Assembly (NCBI GenBank): GCA_963749655.1
Contig: CAVVOB010000029.1
Location: 1-64,000, forward strand
DNA from: Nitrospirota bacterium
GTDB lineage: Bacteria; Nitrospirota; UBA9217
Reading direction: 5' to 3'
Length of the DNA stretch: 64,000 nucleotides
Below the pieces are notes generated by a model that searched no databases, was not told the DNA's origin, and worked only from the letters and a program-made list of their open reading frames with translations. A program made the translations under genes and the position numbers. This document shows, piece after piece, positions 9,147 to 32,826 of this stretch (positions are counted from its first letter, which is position 1; each line of letters begins with the position of its first letter).

Positions 9147-10582
9147 TCAGAAATCCAGCGGGCTCTTCACCTCTTTCCCGGGTTTGCGCGGGAGGCAGTG
9201 CAGATAGATCATCGTGGTCCTGATGTCCGCATGGCCCAGCAGCGTCTGGATCGTGCGGAGGTCGTAGCCCGCCTGAAGCAGGTGCGTGGCGTAACAATGG
9301 CGGAAGGTGTGCGACGTGACGCGCTTCGTGAGCTTCGCCTTTCGGACCGCTTCGCCGAAAACTTCCTGCATCCGCGAATCATGCACATGATAACGCCGCG
9401 ATTCTTTCGTTTGAGCGACGAAGGTCAGTGACTCCTGCGGTAAAAACCATTGCCAGATAAGCTCCTTCGCGGCCCGCGGATACTTCTTCTCAAGTTGATC
9501 ATCGAGAAAGACCCCGGAGAAACCCGCCGCGAGATCTTCGTCATGCAGTTTTTTCACGCGCTCCAACTGAGCATGCAGTTCCGGGAGGAGTGTCTTCGGC
9601 AGCGGCACGGTCCGTACTTTTTTGCCCTTTCCCCGGACCGTAAGGAGACCGGTATCGAAGTCGAAATCCTTGACTCGAAGCGTGCAGCCCTCCGAGATGC
9701 GCAGCCCGCACCCGTACTGGAGCTGGGCCACGAGTTTGAAGGGATGCCGGAGATGAGCCAGAACCGAATCTATTTCTTTCCGGCAAAGGACCGTGGGGAT
9801 ATAATTCGACGTCTTCGCGCGGGGGATGTCTTTATGAGTTCCGAAATCCTTGTTCAGCACATGCCGGTAGAGAAACAGCAAGGCATTGAACGCCTGATTC
9901 TGACGACTGGAGGAAACGTTGCAGTTGACCGCCAGATAAGTGAGATAAGTCCTTTACGTCCTGCGAGGACAGTTCGCCGGGGTCCTTGTCTTTCAGGTAA
10001 TTCTGGAACTTACGGCTCCAATCGGCATAATGCCTTGAGCGTTTTCCGGGAGTAATGCCGCACCTTTATTTCGGCGGCAAGTTTTTCGATGACCGTGTCC
10101 CATGCAGGAGCTTCGGTCTTTCTGAGACAGCGCCATTCGTCATACCGTCTGCCGCTTCTTTCCGGAGGCGCAAACTGAAAACCGCCCGGCGGCTCGCAAA
10201 CCATCAGAGGAGCTGTTTTCGCGGAAGCTGAATTTCGATCCGCATGGCCTTTGCCCTCAAACTGCCGCCCGGACAGCGTCGCCGCGGGAGCGCCCCCGGT
10301 GACCGACGAAGGATCGATTTTACTTCCCGGACGGGAAGCGAAAAACAGGGAAATCGCGTCCGCAGCCTGTTCAACCTGCCCCGCGGTCTGATTCTTGGAA
10401 CGCAGTTTATCGGCGAACAGCCTGACTTGATCCGATGGCGAGTCGGGGAGAGGATATTTTGCGCGAAAGTCGAGAAAATAGAGCAGCCACTTCCGGTAAT
10501 CGGCGAGAAACATGGGAGGGACATTCCGCTGTTTCAGCAGGTCGTTAAAGCCGGCGAGAATATTCTGAGGGATAGGTTTCAT
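9147..10582 (-). CDS. intI: Integron integrase (tyrosine recombinase) with N-terminal extension; frameshifts near 9960-10030
   Basis: YGCGLRISE, HTFRHCYATHLL, LLGH..IRTTMIY and the integron-specific insertion (LHDEDLAAG...LEKKYPRAAKELIWQWFLP...RRYHVHD); GGAGG RBS; adjacent attC array. Confidence 0.93.
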
Positions 10583-10807: not shown

Positions 10808-12182
10808 CATTGCTGTCCAAGATAATCTGATTTCCTGAAGCTCACCCCTACCAATCAAGGCTTTTAGACAGGTAATTCCATCATCTCGGATTCAGGTTCT
10901 TTGTTCTGCTGTCCAATTACCGATAGCTCATTACCAGTTGTTCTGCCGACGGTACAATCGGCGGTGTTTCAAACGGATTATCCAGCCATGTCCATAAATC
11001 TCGATACGTGAACAGGTTATACCGGAGCATGGCAACCAAATTCGACAACGACCAGCCGAGTGTGGAACGGAACTTCAAGTACTTCAACACCAGGATTGCG
11101 ATTAATGCTGTCCAAATCTGGGTCAGCAAAGCATTCCGGCTCGTTCCCACAAACGTCTTGATCTTCAGATTCTGCTTGATCGTCTTGAAAAATATCTCAA
11201 TCTGCCAACGGTCTTTATATATGCTCGCGATGGTCGTAGCGCCAAAAGTGAGATGATTTGTCCACAGAACAATCACCCGCTCATTGTCTGCGTCCCATAC
11301 TTCTACCCGCCGCAGGATATATGGGCATTTCCTGATTGAGTAATGGCCTGTCAGCTCAATGAGCTGGTCTTTAATGATGTTTCTGTTGTCGGGTACCGCT
11401 CTCTTTTCGATCACCTTGAAAGCGGCGTTATCCTTCTCTCTCGTTACAAAAAAAATTCCGGCCTCGGTCCATCGGGCAAACTGCTCATAGTCCACATAAC
11501 CCCGATCAATTGCCAGGATGGAGCCTTTGGGGAACGTGAGCGTATGCGCGATGTTCACTTCATGCACATTCCCCTCGGTCATACTGCAGAAGACCGGAAG
11601 ATAGCCGTCGTGGTCCAACAGCAGGTGAAGCTTGATAGCTCCTTTTTTCTGCCGATACTTTGCCCAGTCAAACAAAGTGATGCAAAGTTCTATCAGCGTG
11701 GCATCGAGGCTGAACAGCTTGTTCTTGAACCGAAACGGCTTCTTGCCGTGTGCCAGAACCCGGCACTTGGCCAGGAGCTGATAAAAGACCTTCTGGTACA
11801 GCTGCCACGGCCGATGCTCGTTGGCATAGGCCAGTGTGGAACGTTTGGGCGCTACATCTATCCCGAGGTGCTTAAGCTTGCCTAGGCATGTCGCCAATCC
11901 GCCGCAAATCTCCCGCAGCGAGTGTGCTTGTCCCAACTGACAGAACACCATTGCAACGAACTGACCCCAGCAACTGAACCCTTTTACGCCTCTTTCTGCC
12001 CGTGTTTCCCGCACCGCTCTCACAAAATCCTGCTGCGGAAATATATCTAGAATCTGTCCGAAAATGCTGTTAAACTTGTTCACGGGGATGTCCTCCTTCG
12101 GATATTTTGGTCTTCGACAAACCTACTTTATCCGATTGAGGCTTCCCCTGCAATTACTCAAATCCTATCTTGGACGGGTCTG
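10808..12182 (-). mobile_element. IS4-family insertion sequence (1375 bp)
   Basis: IRs CATTGCTGTCCAAGATA / TATCTTGGACGGGTCTG; 9-bp target duplication GCTTGCGCT at 10799-10807 and 12183-12191. Confidence 0.92.
10917..12083 (-). CDS. IS4-family transposase (DUF4372-type N-terminus + DDE)
   Basis: 388 aa; SLDATLI, AIDRGY, YKDRWQIEIFFKTIKQNL. Confidence 0.92.
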   Translation of the reverse strand: MNKFNSIFGQILDIFPQQDFVRAVRETRAERGVKGFSCWGQFVAMVFCQLGQAHSLREICGGLATCLGKLKHLGIDVAPKRSTLAYANEHRPWQLYQKVFYQLLAKCRVLAHGKKPFRFKNKLFSLDATLIELCITLFDWAKYRQKKGAIKLHLLLDHDGYLPVFCSMTEGNVHEVNIAHTLTFPKGSILAIDRGYVDYEQFARWTEAGIFFVTREKDNAAFKVIEKRAVPDNRNIIKDQLIELTGHYSIRKCPYILRRVEVWDADNERVIVLWTNHLTFGATTIASIYKDRWQIEIFFKTIKQNLKIKTFVGTSRNALLTQIWTALIAILVLKYLKFRSTLGWSLSNLVAMLRYNLFTYRDLWTWLDNPFETPPIVPSAEQLVMSYR

Positions 12183-12761: not shown

Positions 12762-13667
12762 ATGGCGTACTACTGTTTTCTATGTAATAAAAATCACGAA
12801 GATACATCGACGGAAGAGCACTTCATTCCTAGGTCGATAAATGGTCCCGAAGATCAATGGCTACCTGTATGCAAAATTAGCAATGCACGTTCTAATTCTG
12901 TGTTTGATAATGGTGTCAGAGATATTTTGTACATGGCAAGGCATCAAAACACCAACATTTTAAAACGTACTGGAGATGCTCTTCTAACAGATGGCAGTCT
13001 AAAACAATATAAATTTTCGTATGACGAGCCCAAAGCCCTCGAGGGAGCCGCTGCCTTTCGCTATTTTTATGATCGAGAATTAAGCACGAAAATAGAAAGT
13101 AGCACAGTGTATGCAATCAAGTTCTCTGTCGGATTAAACCAACAAGAACAATTAACATTCTGCAGAGGACTGGCCAAAATGTCAATTGGCGCACTCGCCT
13201 ACCTTCTATTAAAACAAGGAGTACAAACAGAAACAGTCCGTCATATATATTCACAAACATCAATTGATTCGATTCGACATATTGCCCTCGACTTGCCGTG
13301 GGCAGGCAAGTCAGTTGCCCATAGATTCTCGCTAGGACGAACTGACGTATTATCACGCCTTCAGGCTACGTGTAAGAATCCGCAGATAAGCAATCATGTT
13401 ATCCGAATCACGTTTGAAGAGAGGAAATCAATTCATATTGAGGGGATGCTATATAGCAAATACGGCTGGCTGCTAGAACTTTCAAATGATGTTATCGTTG
13501 AGCAGAATGAATTGCGCCTTGAAAACTCGATTGCAGATATACCTGCGCCAGCTATGCTTCGAGACCTAACTTTGTCGCCAGATTCTATTTGCATAATTAA
13601 CCCGAACTACAAAGGTGAGCAACCGCTTCTTCCTAAACATTGGATCAATGAACGATATGACGATTAA
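12762..13667 (+). CDS. Cassette 1: HNH-endonuclease-like protein
   Basis: CFLC...TEEHFIPRSING...VCKISN N-terminus. Confidence 0.65.
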   Translation: MAYYCFLCNKNHEDTSTEEHFIPRSINGPEDQWLPVCKISNARSNSVFDNGVRDILYMARHQNTNILKRTGDALLTDGSLKQYKFSYDEPKALEGAAAFRYFYDRELSTKIESSTVYAIKFSVGLNQQEQLTFCRGLAKMSIGALAYLLLKQGVQTETVRHIYSQTSIDSIRHIALDLPWAGKSVAHRFSLGRTDVLSRLQATCKNPQISNHVIRITFEERKSIHIEGMLYSKYGWLLELSNDVIVEQNELRLENSIADIPAPAMLRDLTLSPDSICIINPNYKGEQPLLPKHWINERYDD

Positions 13668-20406: not shown

Positions 20407-21003
20407 ATGAAGATCCTGATAAAAACAATAACAATCTTTTTTCTTTCGCTGGGGATATTGAGCGACTACGGGATAACGTGTGCGACCGAAACTAACAATC
20501 ATTCCTCCCCCATTGATACCAAAAGAAAGCCTTCCAAATCGATTGAGAATAAACGCAAGTACAAATTCCCATCAATCATGGTTAAACACGATATGCATCA
20601 TTGTAATAAAGATGGCGACTACAACTGCACGCCGCTTCTCGGGAATTTGGTGGTAAACAGTTGGGACATAATACATGATAAGTATGGTCGTCAGTGCAAA
20701 TATTCTTCGCCTGCAATTACCTATGCTGAATTAAAGGAATACCTGCATTTCAACGACGATGAGGTAATCTACCTGGAAAATCCGAAACCAGGCGCACCAC
20801 AGGCGGTCATAAGAACGGAATGGCTCACATGCAACATCACTTTCTTAAATCAAGTTTATGATAGGCAAGATGCGTCAGTTAAGCTGACCGCAGTTTTGAT
20901 TGACAACGAGGTTATGGCTAATTCTCTAAAAGACGAGGAATATCGCAAAAAAAAAGGAATCATAAGAACATTACTAGATTTCTTTGATGTCGTCCATCAA
21001 TAG
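20407..21003 (+). CDS. Cassette 10: exported hypothetical protein
   Basis: 198 aa with signal-peptide-like N-terminus. Confidence 0.6.
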   Translation: MKILIKTITIFFLSLGILSDYGITCATETNNHSSPIDTKRKPSKSIENKRKYKFPSIMVKHDMHHCNKDGDYNCTPLLGNLVVNSWDIIHDKYGRQCKYSSPAITYAELKEYLHFNDDEVIYLENPKPGAPQAVIRTEWLTCNITFLNQVYDRQDASVKLTAVLIDNEVMANSLKDEEYRKKKGIIRTLLDFFDVVHQ

Positions 21004-21039
21004 ACTTTCTATTCAAAAGGTTTTGAACTACGCGCGCGT

Positions 21040-21098
21040 CGACAACCTGCCGGTCCACAGCGACGCGCCATAGGCGGCGCGTGACCGGCGTGTTGAGC
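21040..21098 (+). other. attC 10, MITE inserted at its GTT
   Basis: CGACAAC...GCCGGTCCAC/GTGACCGGC...GTT|GAGC. Confidence 0.88.
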
Positions 21099-21311
21099 CT
21101 GTAGGAAAAGTCCTGAAAAGGCCTTTTTTGCACTTCCAAGACAGCGACGAATTTTTGCTGATGCTAATAGGAATGGCGATGGCGACGATTCTGAGCCCTA
21201 ATGACAGGCTCATTCTCACTCGGCCATCATCGAACGACATTGCGGCAGTTTAATCGCGATATGCGAAGACTGGCGCGTTGGGGTTCAAAAAGGGACTTAT
21301 TCTACAGACTC
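21095..21311 (+). mobile_element. 217-bp non-autonomous element (MITE) with IS1182-type ends
   Basis: IRs GAGCCTGTAGGAAAAGTCC / GGACTTATTCTACAGACTC resemble the ends of the two IS1182 copies; GTT at 21092-21094 and 21312-21314; no transposase. Confidence 0.88.
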
Positions 21312-21329
21312 GTTAGTCTGGAGTTGATA

Positions 21330-22277
21330 ATGAAATTCTCACGCCTTTTAAATGCAGTCTCTCTTCTTTTACTGATCACATCAAATGCAAATGCACAGCT
21401 GAACGATGGCAGCAAATTCGCCGATATTTTGTTTCCAGGGACCAACCAGTTGGCGAATCTGAAATCGACACCATTATCTAGCGCAGAAATTATTGCTTTA
21501 GATGGCAATATTGACCTACCTATTGACCCACACCGTGAAAAACAGTCATTTGACGAACAGATCAAGTCTTTTGCCATAGCCTCGGTTAAACATTTATTTG
21601 AAGGAGCGCGAAAGAAAGACGACAACCCGGAGTGGTATCTGAACCAGTTACAGTTTGATAAATTTGACCTGGGGAAAGGTCGGGTGGGAATAATCTGTTC
21701 TTCTTACTTTGGCGCTGAAGACATGTATGACGCAATATGGATGAAGCAAGGAAATTATTACAGGTATTCGGGCCAATTAATAGGCAAAATAGTAAAGATA
21801 TTTAGGAACACTAATAAACAACCATTTACCATTGTGACGAGAAGTGGGTGGTGTTGCGCATCAGGAATCGGCGAGTTTAATCTATATAGCCCAAAAGATG
21901 ATTCAGGGTTTATTTCCTATGAGTTGACCCAGTCTATTCAAGAACACGCAGCCGTTAAAATGCCTGAAAACCGAATGGATGCAAAAAGGATCCAGGTCGT
22001 GGAGCAACGCTATCGTCTCAGAGAATCCCCAGAGATAGATGACAAACCATACATGAATGAGTTTGAAGGTGACGAAGTTATCGGCAATGTACTCGCTGAA
22101 TTTAAGACAGGCGATAAGGGTACGGCAATTGCTGAGAAAACTGACAATACAGGTAGAATATGGTGGTTTGTGATAATGGAACCAGTTGCTGGACAAACGT
22201 ATACGCGGTTCAATGATAATAAAAGTCAGTCCACGATGGGCTGGATGAGTTCACGATATCTTAAAGTAATAAAGTGA
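21330..22277 (+). CDS. Cassette 11: secreted hypothetical protein, possible C-terminal SH3-like domain
   Basis: Signal peptide MKFSRLL...ANA; LRESP...WWFV...GWMSSRYL. Confidence 0.7.
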   Translation: MKFSRLLNAVSLLLLITSNANAQLNDGSKFADILFPGTNQLANLKSTPLSSAEIIALDGNIDLPIDPHREKQSFDEQIKSFAIASVKHLFEGARKKDDNPEWYLNQLQFDKFDLGKGRVGIICSSYFGAEDMYDAIWMKQGNYYRYSGQLIGKIVKIFRNTNKQPFTIVTRSGWCCASGIGEFNLYSPKDDSGFISYELTQSIQEHAAVKMPENRMDAKRIQVVEQRYRLRESPEIDDKPYMNEFEGDEVIGNVLAEFKTGDKGTAIAEKTDNTGRIWWFVIMEPVAGQTYTRFNDNKSQSTMGWMSSRYLKVIK

Positions 22278-22282
22278 ATGAA

Positions 22283-22342
22283 GACTAACGATAACGCTCG
22301 AGAGGGTCGCTAAAAACCGCGCCCCTCAGCGTCGCGTTGAAC
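22283..22342 (+). other. attC 11, IS1182 inserted at its GTT
   Basis: GACTAAC complements GTTAGTC at 21312; ends GTT|GAAC. Confidence 0.9.
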
Positions 22343-24127
22343 CTGTAGGAAAAGTCATTTTATGCTATAATGACGCCATTAAAATGCTGCACGGAAGCAT
22401 GAATACCCCTCACCCACGGGAGCGCGCATGGCGAAATACAAAGACTACGATTATTCCCAAGGCAAATTTATCCCGATCAACTTCGACAAACAAATCCTCC
22501 CCGGCACCTTCGAACACACCCTCCACTATCTCATCGACAACGACCTCGACCTATCCGCTTTTGATCTCCGGTACAGGAACGACGAAACCGGCGCCCCGGC
22601 CTACGATCCCCGGATCATGCTCAAGATCGTCCTGTATGCCTACTCCAAAGGGATCACCTCCAGCCGGAAGATCGCCGACTGTTGCAACGAGAATGTCGTG
22701 TTCATGGCCCTGTCCGCCGACACCCGGCCGCACTTCACCACGATCGCCGATTTCATCTCATCGAACGACCAGGAGACGGTGAAGCTCTTCCTTGAAGTAC
22801 TCTTTATCTGCGACCGGATGGGCCTGATCGGCAAAGAGATGTTCGCTATCGATGGCTGCAAGCTCCCTTCGAACGCTTCAAAGGAATGGAGCGGAACTAA
22901 AAAGGATCTCGACGTAAGAAAGAAAAGATGGAGAAGGCGATCAAGGCAATGATCGCTCAGCATAAGGAACGGGACAAAACCGAGACCGACCACGCGGTAA
23001 TCGAGAAGGAAGAGCAGTATATAGCCACCCTCAAGGCGAAGATCAAAAAGATAAAAGACTTCATGAACGATAACGACGACAAGCCCGGCAGCAAGGGGCC
23101 GAGGAAGAGCAACATAACCGACAACGAAAGCGCGAATATGATGACTTCGCACGGAGTAGTCCAGGGTTACAACGGTGTAGCCATGGTGGACAGCAAACAC
23201 CAGGTAGTTGTCCATGCCGATGCGACCGGAGACTCCGAGACTGCAATACTTAAACCCATGGTCGAAGGGACCCGGGGAAACTTCAAGACAATCGGAAAAG
23301 AAGAGGACATCTTCAAAAAGACCCAACTGACGACCGATGCCGGTTTTCATTCCGCAATGAACGTGCAGATGGTAATCGAAGAAGGCATCGACGCATACAT
23401 CGCGGATAACAAGTTCCGTCATCGCGATCCCCGATATGCTACGGCCGACAGGCATAAGGAGAGGTTCAATAAAGAGATCGCAAAGAAATTCGACCGGCCG
23501 ATCGTCTTCCAGCCGAGAGACTTCACGGTGAGCCCGGATAAAAGCTTCTGCACCTGCCCGGCCGGGAAACGGATGTACAAATGCGGCAACGCGAATCATC
23601 ATGGACTCCATGCGATCAAGTATCACGGAACAAAACGAGACTGTATCCCGTGCACGCAGCGCGCGCAGTGCCTGAAGAACCCCGAAGTGACCGAAACGCG
23701 CCAGTTCTCCCATTTCACAGGCAGGACCAACAAACAAGAAAAGACCTTCACGCAGAAGATGCGAGAGAAGATAGACTCGGTGGCCGGCAAGTTGATCTAC
23801 GGACGAAGGATGGCGACGGTCGAACCGGTATTTGCTGACATCCGATCGAGTCTCGGTCTCGACCGCTTCAGTCTCAGAGGGAAAAAGAAGGTAAGCACCC
23901 AGTGGCGGCTATACTGTGTGGTTCACAACCTGCTCAAAGTGCACCGATACGGGTTCGGGTTCGCGGAAAGTTGAGATAACGGGAAGCAGAAAGAGAAAGA
24001 AAATGCAGTAGCGAGATCGACCAGGACCGATTGAATCACGCAAAAGCTCAAATCAAGAACTCACCCTGATAAAAACTTGCTACCGGGGATCAATGATGCT
24101 TTTCAAATCGACTTTTTCTACAGACTC
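22339..24127 (+). mobile_element. IS1182-family insertion sequence, copy 1 (1789 bp)
   Basis: IRs GAACCTGTAGGAAAAGTC / GACTTTTTCTACAGACTC; GTT at 22336-22338 and 24128-24130. Confidence 0.92.
22428..23974 (+). CDS. IS1182-family transposase, frameshift near 22915
   Basis: GAPAYDPRIMLKIVLYAY (DUF772-type), AIDGCK, TDAGF, CPAGK, RRMATVEPVF. Confidence 0.9.
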
Positions 24128-30835: not shown

Positions 30836-30942
30836 ATAAATATAACGGCTTTCATTTTGCTTGTTCGGATAGTGCCGATAACCATGCGGCGAATTATGAA
30901 AAAACACTATCGAAGTGGGAACTGAGTTAAACGAACAACAAA

Positions 30943-31001
30943 AGATAACCTGCGCCTCGACAGCGACGCGCCAAAGGCGGCGCGTCAGCCGCGCGTTGAA
31001 C
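30943..31001 (+). other. attC 19, IS1182 inserted at its GTT
   Basis: AGATAAC complements GTTATCT at 28917; ends GTT|GAAC. Confidence 0.9.
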
Positions 31002-32791
31002 CTGTAGGAAAAGTCATTTCATGCTATAATGACGCCATCGAAACGCAGTACGGAAGCATCAAAACCCCTCACCCACGGGAGCGCGCATGGCGAAATACAA
31101 ACATTACGATTATTCCCAAGGCAAATTCATTCCGATCAACTTCGACAAACAGATCCTCCACGGCACCTTCGAACACACCCTCCATTATCTCATCGACAAC
31201 GACATCGACCTGTCCGCTTTTGACCTCCGGTACAAGAACGACGAAACCGGCGCTCCGGCCTACGATCCCCGGATTCTCTTAAAGATCGTCCTCTACGCCT
31301 ATTCCAAAGGAATCACCTCAAGCAGAAAGATCGCCGACTGCTGCAACGATAACGTCGTCTTCATGGCCCTTTCCGCCGACACCCGGCCCCACTTCACGAC
31401 AATCGCCGACTTCATCTCCTCCCATGACCAGGAAACGATGAACCTCTTCCTCGAAGTCCTCCTGATCTGCGACCAGATGGGCCTGATCGGCAAAGAGATG
31501 TTCGCCGTAGACGGCTGCAAACTCCCCTCGAACGCCTCGAAGGAGTGGAGCGGTACCAAGGAAGAACTCGAACATAAGAAAGAGAAGATGGAGAAGGCCA
31601 TCCGGGAGATGATCGCGCAGCACAAGGAGCGGGACAAAACCGAGACCGACCAGGCGGTCATCGAGAAAGAAGAACAGTACATTTCAACGCTCAAGGCGAA
31701 GATCAAGAAGATAAAGACCTGGCTTGCTGAAAACGACGACAAGCCCGGCAGCAAGGGCAAGCCCCGGAAGAGCAACATAACCGATAACGAAAGCGCCAAT
31801 ATGAAGACTTCGCACGGGGTTGTCCAGGGATACAACGGCGTAGCCATGGTGGACAGCAAACACCAGGTAGTGGTCCATGCAGAGGCGACCGGAGACTCCG
31901 AATCCGCAATACTGAAACCCATGGTCGAAGGAACCCGGGAGAACTTCGAGACAATCGGCAAAGAAGAGGACATCTTCAAAAAGACCAAACTGACGACCGA
32001 CGCCGGCTTCCACTCCGAAAAGAACGTGGAGATGGTAATCGAGGACGGCATCGACGCATACATCGCCGACAACAAGTTCCGACACCGCGATCCCCGGTTT
32101 GCCGAAGCGGACAGACACAAGGAGAGGTTCAACAAGGAAGTTGCCAAACGATTCGACCGAGCCATCATCTTTCAACCGCGCGACTTCACGGTAAGCCCGG
32201 ACAAAAGCTTCTGCATCTGCCCGGCCGGGAAACGGATGTACAAATGCGGCAATGCGATCCATAATGGACTACAGGCGATCAAGTACCACGGAACAAAACG
32301 AGATTGCATCCCTTGTCAGCTCAGGGCGAAGTGCATGAAGAACCCCGACGTGACCGAAACCCGTCAGTTCGCCCACTTTACCGGAAGGACCGACCAACAA
32401 GAACAAGACGTTCACGCAGAAGATGCGGGAGAAGATAGACTCGGTAGCCGGCAAGCTGATCTACGGACGAAGAATGGCGACGGTCGAACCGGTCTTTGCC
32501 AATGTCCGGAGCAGCCTCGGCCTCGATCACTTCAGCCTCAGAGGGAAAAAGAAGGTGAGCATTCAGTGGCGGCTCTACTGCGTCGTGCACAATCTATTGA
32601 AGGTGCATCGATACGGGTTTGGATTCGCGGGTAGTTGAGGTAAAGGGAAGCCGAAAGGGAAAGAAAATGCAGTAGCGAGATCGACCAGGACCGATTGAAT
32701 CACGCAAAAGCTCAAATCAAGAACTCACCCTGATAAAAACTTGCTACCGGGGATCAATGATGCTTTTCAAATCGACTTTTTCTACAGACTC
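30998..32791 (+). mobile_element. IS1182-family insertion sequence, copy 2 (1794 bp)
   Basis: Same IRs as copy 1; GTT at 30995-30997 and 32792-32794. Confidence 0.92.
31087..32638 (+). CDS. IS1182-family transposase, frameshift near 32397
   Basis: Close but non-identical homologue of 22428-23974. Confidence 0.9.
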
Positions 32792-32794
32792 GTT

Positions 32795-32826
32795 GGGGTT
32801 CAAAAAGGGACTTATTCTACAGACTC
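32795..32826 (+). mobile_element. Right-end remnant of the MITE (32 bp)
   Basis: Identical to 21280-21311 and followed by GTT at 32827. Confidence 0.88.

Follow-up and report, generated by a model that had tools for sequence, protein, structure and literature searches.

A 217-bp MITE with IS1182-type ends behind an attC site of a Nitrospirota integron cassette array

Integron arrays are usually regarded as shaped by integrase alone. The DNA analyzed here (hereafter the window; 64,000 nucleotides) is contig C29 of a Nitrospirota genome assembly of 4.27 Mb that is 86.6% complete, and its + strand carries an integron cassette array. Using R1, a narrow covariance model built from 13 local attCs, we located 23 attCs on this strand between positions 13661 and 35986 (E ≤ 0.001); the attC calls below rest on R1, and a simple AAC...GTT hairpin rule overlooked many real attCs. 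The integrase gene of the array lies upstream of the cassettes on the − strand (9153–9992; TIGR02249, 317.9 bits) and is broken, with one in-frame TAA, no start and the first ~33 profile positions missing. Between this gene and the first cassettes sits an IS4-family transposase gene (10917–12083, − strand), and a second, stop-free integrase-like gene is found on another contig of the genome, C38 (149610–150547).

Within the array, the attC of one cassette (21039–21094, + strand; R1 70.7 bits, E = 4e-22) ends in the GTT at 21092–21094 and folds as DNA to −19.4 kcal/mol on the + strand and −19.9 kcal/mol (z = −3.41) on the − strand. The following cassette (21312–22338, + strand) consists of a GTT, an ORF of 315 aa with no Pfam family (21330–22277) and its own attC (22283–22338). 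Between the two lies a non-coding 217-bp element (21095–21311, + strand), which the initial annotation had described as a MITE inserted at the attC/cassette junction. That it is an insertion was borne out in two ways. First, the cassette start GTTAGTC (21312–21318) is the reverse complement of GACTAAC (22283–22289) at the cassette’s own attC. Second, contigs from three public wetland runs contain the downstream cassette at ~97% identity, with the likeness running exactly from 21312 to 22338 (26 differences in 1027 bases for the longest piece), which fixes the cassette boundary independently of the MITE. On the upstream side, many public-run contigs share the attC type at 21043–21094, and their likeness ends at 21090–21094. 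The four public runs compared are DNA contigs that stop short of the MITE interior; their limits on both sides place the MITE between two independent cassette-array modules.

All coordinates, junctions and motifs that had been reported for the element were found in place. Its left terminal inverted repeat, GAGCCTGTAGGAAAAGTCC (21095–21113), stands directly 3′ of the GTT at 21092–21094, and its right terminal inverted repeat, GGGACTTATTCTACAGACTC (21292–21311), is followed by GTTAGTC at 21312; the outermost letters are GAGCCTGTAGG at 21095 and CTACAGACTC ending at 21311. With the first bases of the MITE, the attC core reads GTTGAGC. The terminal-repeat motif occurs 7 times in the window at up to 3 mismatches, compared with 1.34 expected, and none of 100 shuffles reached 7; the MITE and two IS copies account for six of these sites, one at each end, and the right end of a remnant (32809–32823) is the seventh. 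Across 29 copies of the family, the terminal helix is 87.4% paired. Alignments of the MITE interior to the IS interiors scored within chance (10–56 of 200 shuffles as high), and we found no conserved reading frame in the MITE, no frame being stop-free in more than 3 of the 29 family members. The element thus has IS1182-like inverted ends around an unrelated, non-coding interior, as claimed. An ATG inside the MITE shares its frame with the ORF of the downstream cassette, and the open frame that results has 358 aa (21201–22277, + strand); this is probably due to chance, since the frame is closed in a divergent copy of the same genome (copy B, below).

The whole MITE folds to −37.2 kcal/mol (z = −3.91) on the + strand and −32.7 kcal/mol (z = −3.09) on the − strand, and this energy comes largely from the paired ends. 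Its interior contains two hairpins. The first is nested (GATGGCGA..TGAGCC/GGCTCA..TCGGCCATC; 21178–21228, + strand) and has 65–70% of its cells paired in the family; the stretch 21176–21230 folds to −9.6 and −10.6 kcal/mol (z = −2.2 and −2.5). The second (21232–21286, + strand) is strong only on the + strand and only in the lineage to which this copy belongs, lineage A. Folded as single-stranded DNA, the stretch 21229–21289 reached −13.9 kcal/mol on the + strand (z = −3.55, none of 200 shuffles as good) and −8.9 kcal/mol on the − strand (z = −1.41, 21 of 200 shuffles as good). The stretch includes the motif ATCGAAC at 21229–21235 and an inner GTT at 21277–21279.

We next consider how widely the element occurs. 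The source genome holds three full lineage-A copies, all uninterrupted and 100% identical, at three different attCs on contigs C29, C30 and C14. It also contains copy B, which is 81% identical and forms a tandem with the C14 copy, and a remnant of 32 nt from the right end. Of 64 genomes of the order (source genome counted), 18 carried relatives of 216–218 bp and 69–81% identity; a comparison by family gave such relatives in 9 of 36 genomes from the family of the source genome and in none of 24 genomes from other families of the phylum. Scans for exact matches to an 18-nt motif returned mostly chance hits, with 13 true copies among 78 genome loci and 13 among 80 fetched metagenome loci. All 13 true copies of the genome collection come from records titled Nitrospirota, Nitrospirae or Nitrospiraceae; the metagenome copies had been picked by the 18-mer and were left out when its conservation was judged. 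Deletion derivatives also exist. One, at an attC junction (locus L017, 1346–1551), is a MITE of ~108 bp that retains 55 bases on the left and 50 on the right, a conserved interior block (described below) among them; in others the leftmost 47 bases are missing.

The ends of the MITE are shared with an IS1182-family IS, of which the genome contains six full copies at 85–100% identity. Two are in the window and both are defective: copy 1 (22339–24127, + strand), which follows the GTT of attC 22283–22338, has its transposase split into 174 aa and 348 aa, and copy 2 (30998–32791, + strand), which follows attC 30942–30997 (R1 71.4 bits), has a 515-aa frame whose last ~75 residues lie in a shifted frame. 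An intact 515-aa frame is present in four of the six copies, one on C28 and three on C38. The C28 transposase scores 278.7 bits on the NCBIfam IS1182 model NF033551 (cut-off 270) over profile positions 24–487 of 488, with the domains DUF772, DDE_Tnp_1_6 and DDE_Tnp_1; copy 2 of the window reaches just 210 bits because of its frameshift. Five of the six copies directly follow an attC-type ...CGTT, and the sixth follows the GTT at the right end of another IS copy. The description of the MITE as a non-autonomous element with the ends of an IS1182-type IS is upheld.

Relatives of this IS have the same ends and stand behind a hairpin ending in CGTT in Nitrospirota records (MAGs, 74–92% identity) and behind a hairpin and CGTT in beta- and gammaproteobacterial MAGs (52–54%). 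We also came across an unannotated IS of 39% protein identity in Pseudoalteromonas piscicida (NZ_CP074588.1, 760775–762607; locus L051), with the same end motifs (GAGGCTGTAG ... CTACAGGCTC), located behind a long hairpin-like repeat that ends in GGCGTT and followed by GTT. The shifted C-terminal frame of copy 2 of the window (32400–32634) recurs in an IS of 89% identity from another Nitrospirota record (L035), either because a defective IS has spread or because the shift is tolerated; a 572-bp IS remnant at an attC junction (L050, 1414–1985) keeps the first 16 codons.

Among 35 elements, the triplet flanking the left end is GTT in 33 and ATT in 2, preceded by C in 26, T in 8 and G in 1; on the right it is GTT in 31, ATT in 2 and ATC in 1, and the one remaining element, whose coordinate had been set wrongly by one base, has GTT. 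The two flanks differ in 5 of the 35. The survey of genomes and metagenomes for copies and flanks, which had been suggested as a check on the element, thus recovered a family flanked mostly by GTT. In 19 of the 28 non-tandem MITE sites (10 of 18 in genomes, 9 of 10 in metagenomes), the last base of an R1 attC directly adjoins the element, and the same is true of 11 of 14 left junctions of the IS. In every attC-adjacent case the orientation is the same, with the left end facing the attC. Some of the sites missed by R1, such as G029 and G071a (z = −2.6 and −2.4), look like attC variants beyond the narrow model; about five others (G022, G070, G013, m129 and the IS in C28) have no significant hairpin (z = −1.2 to +0.8). 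The attC is thus a strongly preferred target, yet not an obligatory one. The MITE copies at G022 and G070 (L006 and L023) both stand behind the same AT-rich, non-hairpin sequence (...CCGTTCATATAAACACT(T/G)GTT), so that they may point to another type of target or to one locus common to both genomes.

Insertion leaves the attC whole. Nearly all copies begin with GA(G/A), so that the junction again reads GTT followed by purines, which fits the attC core consensus RYYYAAC ... GTTRRRY. GTT would be duplicated on insertion, although such a duplication looks the same as an element-borne GTT because every target already ends in GTT. Five of the 35 elements directly follow the right end of another element, and tandem arrays take several forms: two MITEs (A and B in C14, a and b at G069, and a pair in G082), an IS with a MITE (L036 and L114) and two ISs (C38). 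That the attC stays whole, and so would remain a target, would explain such arrays. In C14, copy A adjoins the attC with copy B behind it; copy A, being identical to the other lineage-A copies, is the young one and copy B the older. In C38, two full IS copies lie in direct tandem (IS-GTT-IS) behind one attC (144907–148486; L162 and L163), ~1.1 kb from the second integrase-like gene. At C30, the MITE copy is followed by GTT, by eight bases, GAGTCTGT, resembling the beginning of a further left end (L001, 1718–1740; C30:120267–120289), and then by unrelated DNA; an IS left-end fragment lies ~1 kb further on (C30:121266–121397), behind an attC that has no right half.

With this anatomy and copy number, this specificity of site and orientation, and intact transposase genes in the same genome, the element is, judged by its sequence, a real MITE that has been active recently and belongs to an IS1182-family clade specific for attC. 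Its recent activity and multiple copies are borne out by three identical copies at different attCs and relatives in 18 genomes of the order. We consider it probable that the MITE is moved in trans by an IS1182-family DDE transposase and that this IS clade and its MITEs are specialized attC parasites. In the mechanism that we propose, the transposase encoded in the same genome would insert the MITE immediately 3′ of the conserved GTT that closes an attC, with the left end toward the attC. The GA(G/A) of the left end would rebuild the attC core so that attC function continues, and the element would become the 5′ leader of the next cassette, with which it could travel. In lineage A, a site inside the MITE would have served one time as a secondary target of the transposase, leaving the 32-nt remnant.

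The evidence for this last step comes from a single junction. The remnant (32795–32826, + strand) is the last 32 bases of lineage A and starts directly after the inner CGTT; together with the CGTT that it shares with the preceding IS (32791–32794), it is identical to the MITE from the inner CGTT to the end in 36 of 36 bases. The order after IS copy 2 is the IS end, GTT, GGGGTTCAAAAAGGGACTTATTCTACAGACTC and GTT. The corresponding inner site of the MITE, CGAAGACTGGCGCGTT (21264–21279, + strand), is where the best-conserved inner block of the family ends. Since the remnant starts exactly at the inner CGTT, the transposase probably took this site as its target on one occasion. In the simplest history, an IS would have landed at the attC beside a MITE, and its right end would then have attacked the inner site, producing an adjacent deletion. 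Alternatively, the inner site would itself have received the IS, with loss of the left part between two near-identical left ends. In both histories the actor is likely the transposase, not the integrase.

A serious, though less probable, alternative is that the inner hairpin is incidental, that the truncated copy is the product of ordinary deletion or slippage that ended by chance at CGTT, and that the MITE offers no secondary target. This would agree with the uniqueness of the junction: scans for further junctions of an IS or MITE end, GTY and a MITE right end returned 0 in genome_contigs and 0 in metagenome_contigs. It would also agree with the absence of the hairpin from relatives and with the four bases of microhomology that CGTT, common to the IS end plus GTT and to the MITE, provides. 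The inner site is moreover a modest match to the known targets. In a 16-nt weight matrix built from 39 true sites (among which the score of L051 is meaningless, its coordinate being one base off), it scores 6.8 bits, more than any other position of the element and rank 164 among the 127,970 positions of the window; 32 of the 39 true sites score higher. On the other hand, the breakpoint falls on the only CGTT, and one of only three GTTs, in 217 bp, the left breakpoint is exactly the IS end, and the breakpoint is preceded by the same eight bases, GGCGCGTT, as the insertion point of the C30 copy at its attC, a real target. We therefore retain one-time use of the inner site by the transposase as the probable reading of this junction.

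Mobilization by a transposase leaves two features of the MITE family unaccounted for, a conserved 15-nt interior block and the near-constant length of 216–218 bp. The block (alignment columns 171–185, CGAAGCCTGGTGCGT) ends at the inner GT and has a mean identity of 0.96, as conserved as the MITE ends, as judged on 19 copies found without using the block. It is preceded by a 6+5+6 palindrome, GTTTAATCGCGTTAAAC (columns 155–171; window 21248–21264), which is kept in most copies and degraded in lineage A, and which looks like an operator for a dimeric protein. Neither the 15-mer nor the palindrome was found in the IS copies. These features raise the alternative that the conserved interior serves a function of its own, as an outward promoter or small RNA acting on the downstream cassette or as a protein operator at GTTTAATCGCGTTAAAC. 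The length kept at 69–81% identity, the block, the presence of the palindrome in most copies and the fixed orientation, which always puts the + strand upstream of a cassette, all speak for such a role.

The individual forms of this alternative fared poorly in our scans. A promoter scan of 20900–21500 gave two weak promoter-like sites, compared with 0.8 expected, and nothing convincing, and no terminators were detected in this interval. Family-wide, no sigma-70-like promoter was common to a majority of the 29 copies, the best being present in 9 on the + strand and in 12 on the − strand. Rfam produced no match at the gathering score over the whole window, and, with the threshold relaxed to E ≤ 1 for the surroundings of the element, a single 20-bit hit at chance level. 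The covariation term from RNAalifold on 20 copies was just −1.15, and a scan of all column pairs returned short helices only, with similar scores on both strands. Given these results, together with the loss of the palindrome in lineage A, which is the active lineage here, and the existence of deletion derivatives, we regard a separate function of the interior as unlikely. Two further candidates were discarded: a long-range helix between columns 52–58 and 181–187, whose variable columns are unassociated (G/T 13, G/C 9, A/T 5, A/C 1, G/A 1), and the likeness of the ATGCTAATAA motif to TGCTATAAT of the IS, which was set aside because the motif fails the T6 rule.

The initial annotation had also proposed that the MITE carries its own attC in the inner hairpin and supplies a new target or pseudo-attC. 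The corresponding alternative to a transposase target is that the hairpin is a working pseudo-attC for the integron integrase, creating a new cassette boundary, and that the remnant at 32795 is an integrase deletion between attC 30942–30997 and the inner site. The hairpin is indeed imperfect, with AAC...GTT, and its candidate R″ and R′ boxes, ATCGAAC and GTTGGGG, agree in part with the attC consensus. On its 3′ side, GACTGGCGCGTT is similar to how local attCs end at 3′ and matches their L′–R′ end in 11 of 12 bases; the remnant breakpoint lies exactly at a GTT, and the stop-free gene on C38 could offer an integrase. Against this, R1 gave no hit on 21229–21289 even at E ≤ 10 with filters off, nor any inside the MITE relatives at E ≤ 0.01. 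The integrase recombines the − (bottom) strand of attC, which is the strand that folds weakly here; in the best fold, AAC pairs with a second GTT (21283–21285) and not with the GTT of the breakpoint, and the intI of this array is broken.

Comparison across the family weighs further against an attC. The AAC and GTT are not kept in relatives: the inner triplet is GTT in 11, GTC in 8 and GTA in 1 of 20 copies, and the position of AAC is usually GAGC or GAGA. Over 29 copies, the helices that had been annotated have 74.9% of their cells paired, compared with 74.8% in shuffles (262 of 500 as high), and a covariation score of 0.116, which is that of shuffles (0.116). The hairpin 2 stretch folds to between −3.5 and −11.4 kcal/mol in 28 relatives, weaker than the lineage-A fold, with z = −0.56 in copy B. 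Several substitutions specific to lineage A create or strengthen hairpin pairs, to which we give little weight because the structure was derived from lineage A itself. The evidence thus says no to an attC of the MITE’s own, and the strong inner hairpin appears instead to be a lineage-specific feature; a working pseudo-attC seems very unlikely to us. What survives of the earlier proposal is the new target, probably used once by the transposase, while little speaks for the attC-like site. Finally, the idea that the MITE is the single-copy, decayed remnant of a full IS, with which it has its ends alone in common, can be dismissed, refuted as it is by three identical copies at separate sites and a family spread over many genomes, and opposed by an interior unrelated to the IS.

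The MITE and its partner IS bear comparison with several known systems, among them IS1272, other IS1182-family ISs and TnSha1. Some IS1182-family members are reported to target palindromes, and IS1272 to target hairpins (PMC4923244, PMC5678879); the partner IS is placed beside them by its match to the NCBIfam IS1182 model. As described in these reports, IS1272 shows no primary-sequence preference, inserts in both orientations and deletes part of the hairpin without making a duplication, whereas the elements here insert at one exact position after GTT, in one orientation, leaving the attC whole with GTT on both sides. Such exact and oriented insertion at the GTT of attC is a sharper form of a known habit of the IS1182 family.

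Two groups of attC-specific elements have been documented, the IS1111-attC group (PMC11187229) and the group IIC-attC introns (PMC3001079). Members of the first, such as ISKpn4 and ISPst6, likewise insert site-specifically at one end of cassette attCs, and are reported to use a DEDD transposase guided by a seekRNA (PMC11187229). In contrast, the partner enzyme here is a DDE transposase of IS1182 type acting on classical terminal inverted repeats, and would also mobilize a MITE. Group IIC-attC introns are also attC parasites, reported as possibly feeding transcription into the next cassette (PMC3001079). They are retroelements with a ribozyme and a reverse transcriptase; the MITE has no Rfam family and no frame, and no conserved promoter was found in its family. 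The MITEs and IMUs of class 1 integrons resemble the present family as small, non-autonomous, integron-associated elements with inverted ends, but are described as flanking whole integrons and moving them as composite units (PMC3575428), while the family here occupies the attC core of individual cassettes within the array. The element also recalls attC sites and ORF-less cassettes, with an imperfect hairpin ending in CGTT and a unit bounded by GTT on both sides. As an ORF-less gene cassette it was rejected: it has no attC at its 3′ end and no R1 hit inside, and its ends are IS inverted repeats.

Full-text searches of the literature returned no report of an IS1182-type IS or MITE inserting in attCs. 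A bolder reading of our data, which we offer tentatively and which in its full form is doubtful, holds that the IS1182-type DDE transposases of this clade would read attC much as the integrase does, as a folded hairpin plus GTT, and would with their MITEs form a third class of attC-specific parasites that rebuild the core, stack in tandem and are borne by cassettes; in lineage A, a copy of the 3′ half of attC would in addition have evolved within the MITE and would already act as a landing or deletion site.

For the annotation of cassette arrays, the finding matters because a 220-bp insert at GTT resembles an ORF-less cassette. For the biology of the arrays, the same attC base is hit in Nitrospirota and, by relatives of the IS, in proteobacterial records. 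Cassettes would be expected to be pushed away from their promoter, tandem parasites to accumulate at one junction and deletions to be able to begin at IS ends, and extra DNA may be carried with cassettes. A clade of DDE-type ISs with its own MITE would thereby add a third route of array remodeling.
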